Below, piece by piece: positions 45,479-45,500 of a stretch of DNA of 64,000 bases (position 1 is its first letter; each line of letters begins with the position of its first letter). The stretch lies in NCBI RefSeq assembly GCF_050920415.1, contig NZ_CP169309.1. One strand, written 5' to 3'. Position numbers and translations under genes: made by a program. This stretch comes from Escherichia coli (GTDB taxonomy: Bacteria; Pseudomonadota; Gammaproteobacteria; Enterobacterales; Enterobacteriaceae). Below the pieces are notes generated by a model. It was not told where the DNA came from, did not search any database, and saw only the letters and a program-made list of their open reading frames with translations.

Positions 45479-45500
45479 TTTCTCCAGAGTGCTGGAGAAA
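45479..45500. promoter_or_regulatory. Perfect palindrome in yqhD-yqhC divergent region (candidate YqhC operator)
   Basis: TTTCTCCAGagtgCTGGAGAAA, 9-bp arms with 4-bp spacer, about 115 bp upstream of yqhD and at the putative yqhC start. Confidence 0.4.

Follow-up and report, generated by a model that had tools for sequence, protein, structure and literature searches.

The divergently transcribed genes yqhD and yqhC of Escherichia coli are separated by a control region in which a perfect palindrome stands out. Which molecule reads this palindrome, is it a single symmetric unit, and does it lie in front of yqhC or at its start? We examined these questions in a stretch of E. coli DNA of 64,000 nucleotides (the window), and all coordinates below are window positions. 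yqhD (44200–45363, minus strand, ATG at 45363) encodes an NADPH-dependent aldehyde reductase and is the regulated target, with dkgA (43268–44095) downstream. On the other side lies yqhC (plus strand), whose product contains AraC_N (PF06719, 2e-40), HTH_18 (5e-23) and HTH_AraC, the last in two stretches (Pfam), and resembles solved structures (AdpA, GadX, MarA, AraC, Rns and SoxS) in its DNA-binding domain only. The identities given to yqhD, dkgA and the AraC-family gene yqhC in the initial annotation of this DNA are right.

Identity of the palindrome and the start of yqhC

A repeat finder places a perfect 10-4-10 palindrome, ATTTCTCCAG agtg CTGGAGAAAT, at 45478–45501. Its arms (45478–45487 and 45492–45501) are 10 nt each, are 100% complementary and enclose a 4-nt loop; the surrounding letters read ...cctATTTCTCCAGagtgCTGGAGAAATgcg.... 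The initial annotation had described a 9-4-9 palindrome about 115 bp upstream of yqhD. That palindrome is present, the dyad extending one base further on each side, and position 45479 is 116 bp from the yqhD ATG on the minus strand.

The element is already known. Its original description as a 24-bp palindrome is probably that of Turner and colleagues in 2011. It has since been presented as "a 24-bp palindrome consisting of two 10-bp repeating units" and as a predicted YqhC site (Chang et al., 2021; PMC10991953), and a figure legend (Figure 1) of Frazao et al. (2018; PMC6115493) marks the palindrome, within the yqhD promoter region, as a sequence that YqhC might bind. A published primer shows the same letters in K-12 (PMC8262776), and in our alignment the K-12 palindrome is identical base for base. 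Comparison with the published YqhC site, a check proposed in the initial annotation, shows the two to be the same 24-bp palindrome of the K-12 yqhD promoter region, so that we are dealing with an ordinary and largely known control element. What the present analysis adds is the unequal conservation of the arms, the occurrence of one box three times at 21/22-bp spacing, the placement of the dyad fully within the intergenic region, and a layout common to part of the YqhC family.

The palindrome was set against the number of perfect inverted repeats (arms of at least 10 nt, loops of 0–10 nt) predicted by a first-order Markov model of the 64-kb window. The model predicts 0.74 and 16 are observed, which collapse to about nine loci; perfect inverted repeats of this class are enriched in the window. 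Most of the others are G+C-rich and some lie between convergent genes in a terminator-like position; the yqhD–yqhC palindrome is A+T-rich and has no T-tract. Because the class itself is enriched, the better argument that the palindrome is not a chance occurrence is its conservation (see below). Other elements were recorded in passing. A G+C-rich perfect palindrome, CGTTCCCGGTaccgcaACCGGGAACG (46460–46485), lies between the stops of two convergent genes, yqhC (46456) and yghB (46496), and probably serves as a bidirectional terminator. Another perfect palindrome, A+T-rich and of the form 11-4-11 (TCGCTATATATgacaATATATAGCGA, 53832–53857), ends 13 nt upstream of a small ORF (ATG at 53871), which we take to be probably yghW, and looks like an operator or promoter element. 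In the yqhD–dkgA gap, positions 44134–44197 (minus strand) match the Rfam ES173 sRNA (RF02753; E 1.3e-20) at 99 bits, above the gathering score of 90, and the match partly overlaps a perfect G+C-rich palindrome, CTCACCGGAGctggCTCCGGTGAG (44116–44139).

The initial annotation had also set the palindrome at the putative start of yqhC and had called that start ambiguous. The ambiguity is real. The K-12 record begins yqhC at ATG 45500–45502 (plus strand), which overlaps the end of the right arm and gives a product of 318 amino acids. In PGAP genomes the gene starts 57 nt later, at ATG 45557, and runs to 46456 (299 amino acids); this is the annotation of strain MFDS1022581, which is 100% identical to the window here. 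ATG 45557 is universal among the 81 Enterobacteriaceae sequences that we compared, 52 of which have a Shine-Dalgarno-like motif in front of it, and 61 have an in-frame stop within the 57 nt that precede it. An in-frame ATG at the 45500 position occurs in seven sequences, from Escherichia and two Klebsiella species only, in the latter by coincidence. Within Escherichia, codons 1 and 2 of the long form vary (ATG CGA, ATG CTA, ATG GTA, ATA GTA) while the remaining DNA is identical, E. coli E69 having ATA at the 45500 position, and the GGAG in front of ATG 45500 is only 2 nt away from it. Conservation and the variation of codons 1 and 2 led us to reject ATG 45500 as the true start, and, judged by comparison of orthologues, the ambiguity resolves to the downstream ATG. 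The K-12-style start codon does overlap the end of the right arm, as first described, but it is probably not the real start; with the conserved start at 45557 the palindrome is upstream of the gene and fully intergenic. The yqhD–yqhC spacer measures 193 bp, not 136 bp. Published yqhC expression and GFP constructs used the longer form or were fused at the upstream ATG 45500. Over the spacer region (45330–45620) the window shares no more than about 97% identity with most E. coli genomes and reaches at least 99% in 16 of 5,412; by this measure the window comes from a minority E. coli lineage.

Conservation of the arms and the three half-sites

In E. coli, the 40 nt at 45462–45501 are unchanged in 4,527 of 5,412 genomes (84%) and carry one mismatch in 884; the one-mismatch variant that was sampled, T45481C, falls in the left arm and is uncompensated. 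For comparison across species, 80 orthologous loci from Enterobacteriaceae were taken from one scan of GTDB species genomes, and counts were made on 81 species-level sequences. Column conservation reveals a block extending from the yqhD −35 as far as the right arm. Columns with little or no variation are ATTGTG (45423–45428), CTCAATGC (45447–45454), TGCC (45462–45465), TGTCTTGCC (45468–45476), TTTCT (45479–45483) and CTGGAGAAA (45492–45500).

The last of these, in the right arm, is essentially invariant across the 81 species. The left arm varies among genera at 45484 (C or A), 45486 and 45487, with left-arm positions conserved at only 60–80% and changes uncompensated; the 4-nt loop is free to vary. 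Ten of ten dyad positions match in 8 sequences, nine in 18, eight in 41, seven in 13 and six in one. A dyad of 8–10/10 is therefore kept in 67 of the 81, and a perfect 9-4-9 dyad in 20. Losses all come from changes in the left arm, except at the outermost pair, where the end base of the right arm (45501) also varies. A formal pair count finds 83% of cells paired. Covariation in the stem equals that of shuffled controls (0.024 versus 0.023), a value reached by 95 of 500 shuffles. Of 75 sequences, 23 lack pairing at one stem position and 30 at another. Change on both sides is confined to the outermost pair, where it is seen in three sequences; this pair is unpaired in 56 of the 75. The invariant right arm, the uncompensated change in the left arm, the free loop and the absence of covariation argue that selection acts on the sequence of each arm and not on their pairing. 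Comparable constraint on both half-sites and a dyad kept in the orthologues, as for the symmetric operator of a homodimeric one-HTH regulator, were not what we found. Conservation across Enterobacteriaceae, which the initial annotation had made a test of its proposal, thus holds for the right arm and for an imperfect dyad; the left arm is degenerate and the arms do not form a symmetric unit.

A different organization emerges from the core WTYCTSC, for which the 245 nt examined upstream contain exactly three conserved positions: at 45458 on the plus strand (76 of 81 sequences), at 45479 on the plus strand (51 of 81) and at 45494 on the minus strand (all 81). The first two are direct repeats 21 bp apart and the third is inverted. 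A position weight matrix made from the 14-mer TTGCCYATTTCTCC (45472–45485; background 0.0006 per position) matches at exactly −21 on the same strand in 79 of the 81 species. It also matches, inverted, at +22 on the minus strand in 41, the only species in which the full 14 bp of the inverted copy are recognizable. We refer to the three half-sites as P (ATGCTCATTTCTGC, 45451–45464, plus strand), D (TTGCCTATTTCTCC, 45472–45485, plus strand) and I (the inverted copy, reverse complement TGTCGCATTTCTCC, 45494–45507, minus strand). P repeats D directly at a distance of 21 bp, and I lies 22 bp from D. The left arm of the palindrome is the promoter-distal end of D and the right arm is the core of I, so that the palindrome is the junction of D and I, which meet by their ATTTCTCC ends. 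We prefer to see in the left arm the terminal part of a 14-bp half-site, paired as a 21-bp direct repeat with the proximal site next to the yqhD −35.

The half-sites are placed with respect to the yqhD promoter in a regular way. The promoter given by Lee et al. (2010), as quoted in PMC6115493, has a −35 TTGAGA, a −10 CACAAT and a start at C. Our promoter scan returned the same promoter at 45451..45423 on the minus strand (−35 at 45446–45451, invariant across species; −10 at 45423–45428), which would put the transcription start at about 45416 (C, minus strand). P adjoins the −35, sharing its first base. Relative to this start P, D and I would be centred at approximately −41.5, −62.5 and −84.5. 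The locus thus combines a two-HTH regulator, half-sites of about 14–17 bp spaced about 21 bp apart, and a proximal half-site at the −35, as in an AraC/XylS-type operator whose tandem half-sites serve a class II-like promoter. This tandem half-site geometry is standard for AraC/XylS-type activators such as AraC, XylS, RhaS and MelR. Further copies were sought near the yqhD transcription start (GGCAGA..TCTGCC, 45394–45412) and rejected; they are without the conserved core and their left half is poorly conserved.

More distant members of the family were represented by loci whose regulators share 45–57% protein identity with YqhC; they came from a search of representative proteins and were placed on contigs, the homologous proteins listed otherwise being close relatives (at least 84% identity, some fragments apart). 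TTGCCyAwTyC is the element most widely kept in them; almost every locus has it in front of either the regulator gene or the reductase gene that partners it. The partner genes encode Fe-ADH, Zn-ADH, SDR or nitroreductase enzymes; the AraC_N regulators of L085, L086, L092/L093, L097 and L099 lie beside differing reductase genes, all with TTGCCyAwTyC upstream. L085, L089 and L091 (in the group with 46–57% protein identity) have P, D and inverted I at the 21/22-bp spacing. L085 carries TTGCCTATTCGTTC and, inverted, TTGCCCATTCCCCC; in L089 the TTGCC box is present three times, the inverted copy being a full one; L091 reads ...TTGCCTAATCCTGC-N7-TGGAGAAAA, in which the right-arm core is kept and the arms match at only about 5/10 positions. 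The 21-bp spacing is seen in L085, L086, L089 and L091 and, by inspection, in L094. I is absent from L086, L087, L088, L093, L096, L097 and L099, which keep D and in some cases P. Across these loci, then, the inverted third site appears as a recurrent but not universal feature of the YqhC family. The sequences suggest that TTGCCyAwTyC is a family-wide recognition element for an electrophile/aldehyde-response module, in which AraC_N regulators are paired with reductase genes.

We consider it probable, from these observations, that the palindrome acts at the DNA level as an element of a YqhC operator, contributing two inverted half-site ends within an AraC-type operator of three half-sites. It would be a cis-regulatory DNA element of the yqhD/yqhC divergent control region and not an RNA structure. 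Its arms would be two oppositely oriented copies of the box ATTTCTCC, itself the 3′ part of a half-site of about 14 bp, TTGCCyATTTCTCC, that the two-HTH domain of the AraC/XylS-type activator YqhC may recognize. The third copy, P, lies 21 bp toward yqhD, next to its −35. YqhC bound to the tandem pair P and D would activate yqhD–dkgA in the usual manner of the AraC family, and the inverted I, which forms the right arm and would overlap a predicted yqhC −35, may tie YqhC occupancy to transcription of yqhC itself.

A more elaborate version of this scheme, in which the three adjacent half-sites form a compact switch and a YqhC dimer alternates between D plus I and P plus D, seems to us possible but rather unlikely. 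Without aldehyde, the dimer would sit on the inverted pair D and I (the palindrome), covering the −35 of its own gene and leaving P empty. A signal or a constitutive mutation would cause it to re-pair onto the tandem sites D and P, turning on yqhD–dkgA and freeing the yqhC promoter. If true, this would explain both the raised yqhC mRNA in constitutive alleles and the recurrence of P, D and inverted I in distant members.

Alternative readings and YqhC occupancy

The arms could instead have unrelated jobs, the left one as the distal edge of the YqhC site and the right one as a −35 or UP-like region at which RNA polymerase engages the yqhC promoter, with no joint function for the dyad. The right arm does contain a candidate yqhC −35, TGGAGA (45493–45498, plus strand), 17 bp upstream of a conserved CACAAT (45516–45521, plus strand) that would serve as the −10. 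Among genera the latter reads CACAMT, in which position 2 (A) and position 6 (T) never vary; column conservation picks it out as GCACAMT at 45515–45521. TGGAGA-N17-CACAAT mirrors the TTGAGA-N17-CACAAT of yqhD about position 45472, and the candidate scores 8/12, which is below the threshold of the scan. Transcription is predicted to start at about 45528, giving a leader of 29 nt to ATG 45557; we found no published data on the yqhC transcription start. TGGAGA...TTGC invites a sigma-54 reading, which was rejected since its spacing, judged by eye, is wrong. A fourth, mirror-image half-site at 45515–45528 was rejected as well: its match to P is poor (3–5/8, judged by eye) and neither L085 nor L089 has a counterpart, and we read the conserved GCACAAT there as a −10 instead.

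The mirrored promoter, together with a right arm that stays invariant while the left one drifts, speaks for separate functions, and L091 keeps TGGAGAAAA with a plausible −10 located 17 bp downstream even though its left arm matches at only about 5/10 positions. However, two adjacent conserved 8-mers are improbable as exact reverse complements by accident (about 4^-8), and a −35 hexamer is rarely accompanied by invariance over 9 nt across genera. The regulator gene of L085 is downstream of the ADH gene and co-directional with it, not divergent, and an inverted full half-site is nevertheless kept at the same +22 spacing, which argues that I is not merely the −35 or another promoter element of the regulator gene. 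In L089 the inverted copy is a full TTGCC box. We therefore regard wholly separate roles for the arms as improbable.

Less probable again is that the palindrome is the symmetric operator of another classical homodimeric regulator, for example one behind the reported CRP- or GlaR-linked control of yqhC and yqhD, and not a site for YqhC. Perfect dyads are typical of homodimeric one-HTH regulators and AraC-family sites are usually asymmetric. Against this, the arm sequence is found again in P, as a direct repeat at 21 bp, and goes with the YqhC family even where the genomic context is unrelated, and the arms are unequally conserved. The CRP consensus is TGTGA-N6-TCACA and GntR-type sites read t.GT...AC.a; the palindrome resembles neither. 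Reviews report negative control of yqhC and yqhD by cAMP-CRP (PMC5297802), and Reg-Seq notes a link to GlaR, its site unknown (PMC7567609). Our literature search returned no paper that links another factor to the palindrome, and nothing useful on the GlaR/CsiR link to yqhC.

An RNA hairpin in a long yqhC leader, either hiding the GGAG and ATG of the 318-residue form (45494–45502) or pausing or terminating transcription, would fit the stable folding of both strands (−13 to −19 kcal/mol, z-scores −4.2 and −5.6), the presence in GGAGAAATG of the Shine-Dalgarno-like GGAG and the K-12 start codon within the 3′ arm, and a predicted yqhC promoter upstream, inside yqhD (PMC8262776), but we judge it very improbable and rejected it along with a riboswitch, as the stem is broken in many species and does not covary, a scan detects no terminator at the palindrome (which has neither a G+C-rich stem nor a U-tract), no Rfam family matches there, the ATG that it would hide is confined to Escherichia and two Klebsiella species and lies only 2 nt from the GGAG, stops commonly precede the conserved ATG, and the proposed yqhC −10 lies downstream of the dyad.

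Published data show that YqhC binds this spacer. A single YqhC gSELEX peak was obtained, in the yqhD–yqhC spacer (PMC8249747), and YqhC bound an EMSA probe running from 45366 to about 45505 that includes most of the palindrome (PMC8262776). ChIP-exo of tagged YqhC gave its strongest peak (S/N 18.7, marked as also RNAP-bound) at 3153318–3153348 of NC_000913.2. Conversion with an offset of +1978 to NC_000913.3, checked on the tsaD–rpsU gap, places it at 45392–45422, over the yqhD transcription start and 5′UTR. The peak covers −6 to +25 of yqhD and lies about 80 bp away from the palindrome, the gap to its nearest edge being about 56 bp. It thus gives no support to occupancy of the palindrome, and may reflect the downstream boundary of an activator–RNAP complex or a further contact. 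The same stretch holds the inverted pair GGCAGA..TCTGCC (45394–45412), which was flagged as terminator-like on the plus strand, and the 3′ half of this stretch, GTCTGCCTGATG, is conserved among genera. A mutation in a separate SoxS-like site is said to have abolished YqhC binding in the work of Lee and colleagues in 2010; if so, the palindrome alone is insufficient. The strong operator candidate of the initial annotation survives in part: the palindrome lies in the divergent control region and has been published as a predicted YqhC site, but its arms are conserved asymmetrically and the ChIP-exo peak is elsewhere.

Expression data bear on the arm next to yqhC. In constitutive yqhC mutants, both yqhC mRNA and a yqhC-promoter GFP fusion are up; the fusion ends at 45499, without the candidate −10, and yet was reported to be active (PMC8262776). 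A reanalysis of MPRA data found annotated activator sites to be needed for yqhC expression (bioRxiv 10.1101/2024.12.17.629042); the original Reg-Seq analysis saw no transcription-factor site for yqhC (PMC7567609). Taken together, the published data point to YqhC-dependent expression of yqhC. Which bases YqhC touches, where the yqhC promoter lies, and in which direction and by what means yqhC would regulate itself are what we infer here.

YqhC and its promoter are widely used, as an aldehyde biosensor and as a switch for furfural or glutaraldehyde tolerance, and knowing the key bases aids promoter engineering. What functions as a unit is probably the whole block of three boxes (about 45446 to 45507) and not the palindrome alone. 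The K-12 yqhC gene model (318 amino acids) is very likely 19 codons too long, and constructs fused at ATG 45500 lose what is probably the native yqhC −10. The accepted view of the yqhD/yqhC system stands.

Comparison with MarA/SoxS and AraC/XylS systems

The DNA-binding domain of YqhC aligns with those of MarA, SoxS and Rob, which bind the mar/sox/rob box (AYnGCACnnWnnRYYAAAY) as monomers. In the literature, one site of the yqhD promoter is termed "SoxS-like" (PMC6115493). In a comparison with the marbox by eye, the P region in most genera reads AATGCACATTCCTGCCGATG, with GCAC beside the −35. E. coli P has GCTC in place of GCAC, and the second recognition element looks weak. YqhC further differs from the monomeric MarA and SoxS in having a large N-terminal domain and repeated half-sites, and the palindrome as such is no marbox.

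The closer parallel is with araI1–araI2/araO2 (AraC), XylS at Pm, RhaS and MelR, where tandem 21-bp half-sites lie next to the −35. Like the AraC/XylS activators, YqhC has two HTH motifs per subunit and an N-terminal sensing/dimerization domain, its half-sites, about 14–17 bp long, recur at 21 bp and reach the −35 with the proximal copy, and its gene is divergent. As with O2 of AraC, the additional site I could offer an alternative partner, although alternate occupancy is hypothetical here. Unlike AraC, the N-terminal domain of YqhC is AraC_N (PF06719) and not the arabinose-binding cupin, and the inverted third site is an adjacent one, at 22 bp instead of 210 bp, so that no loop would be needed to reach it.
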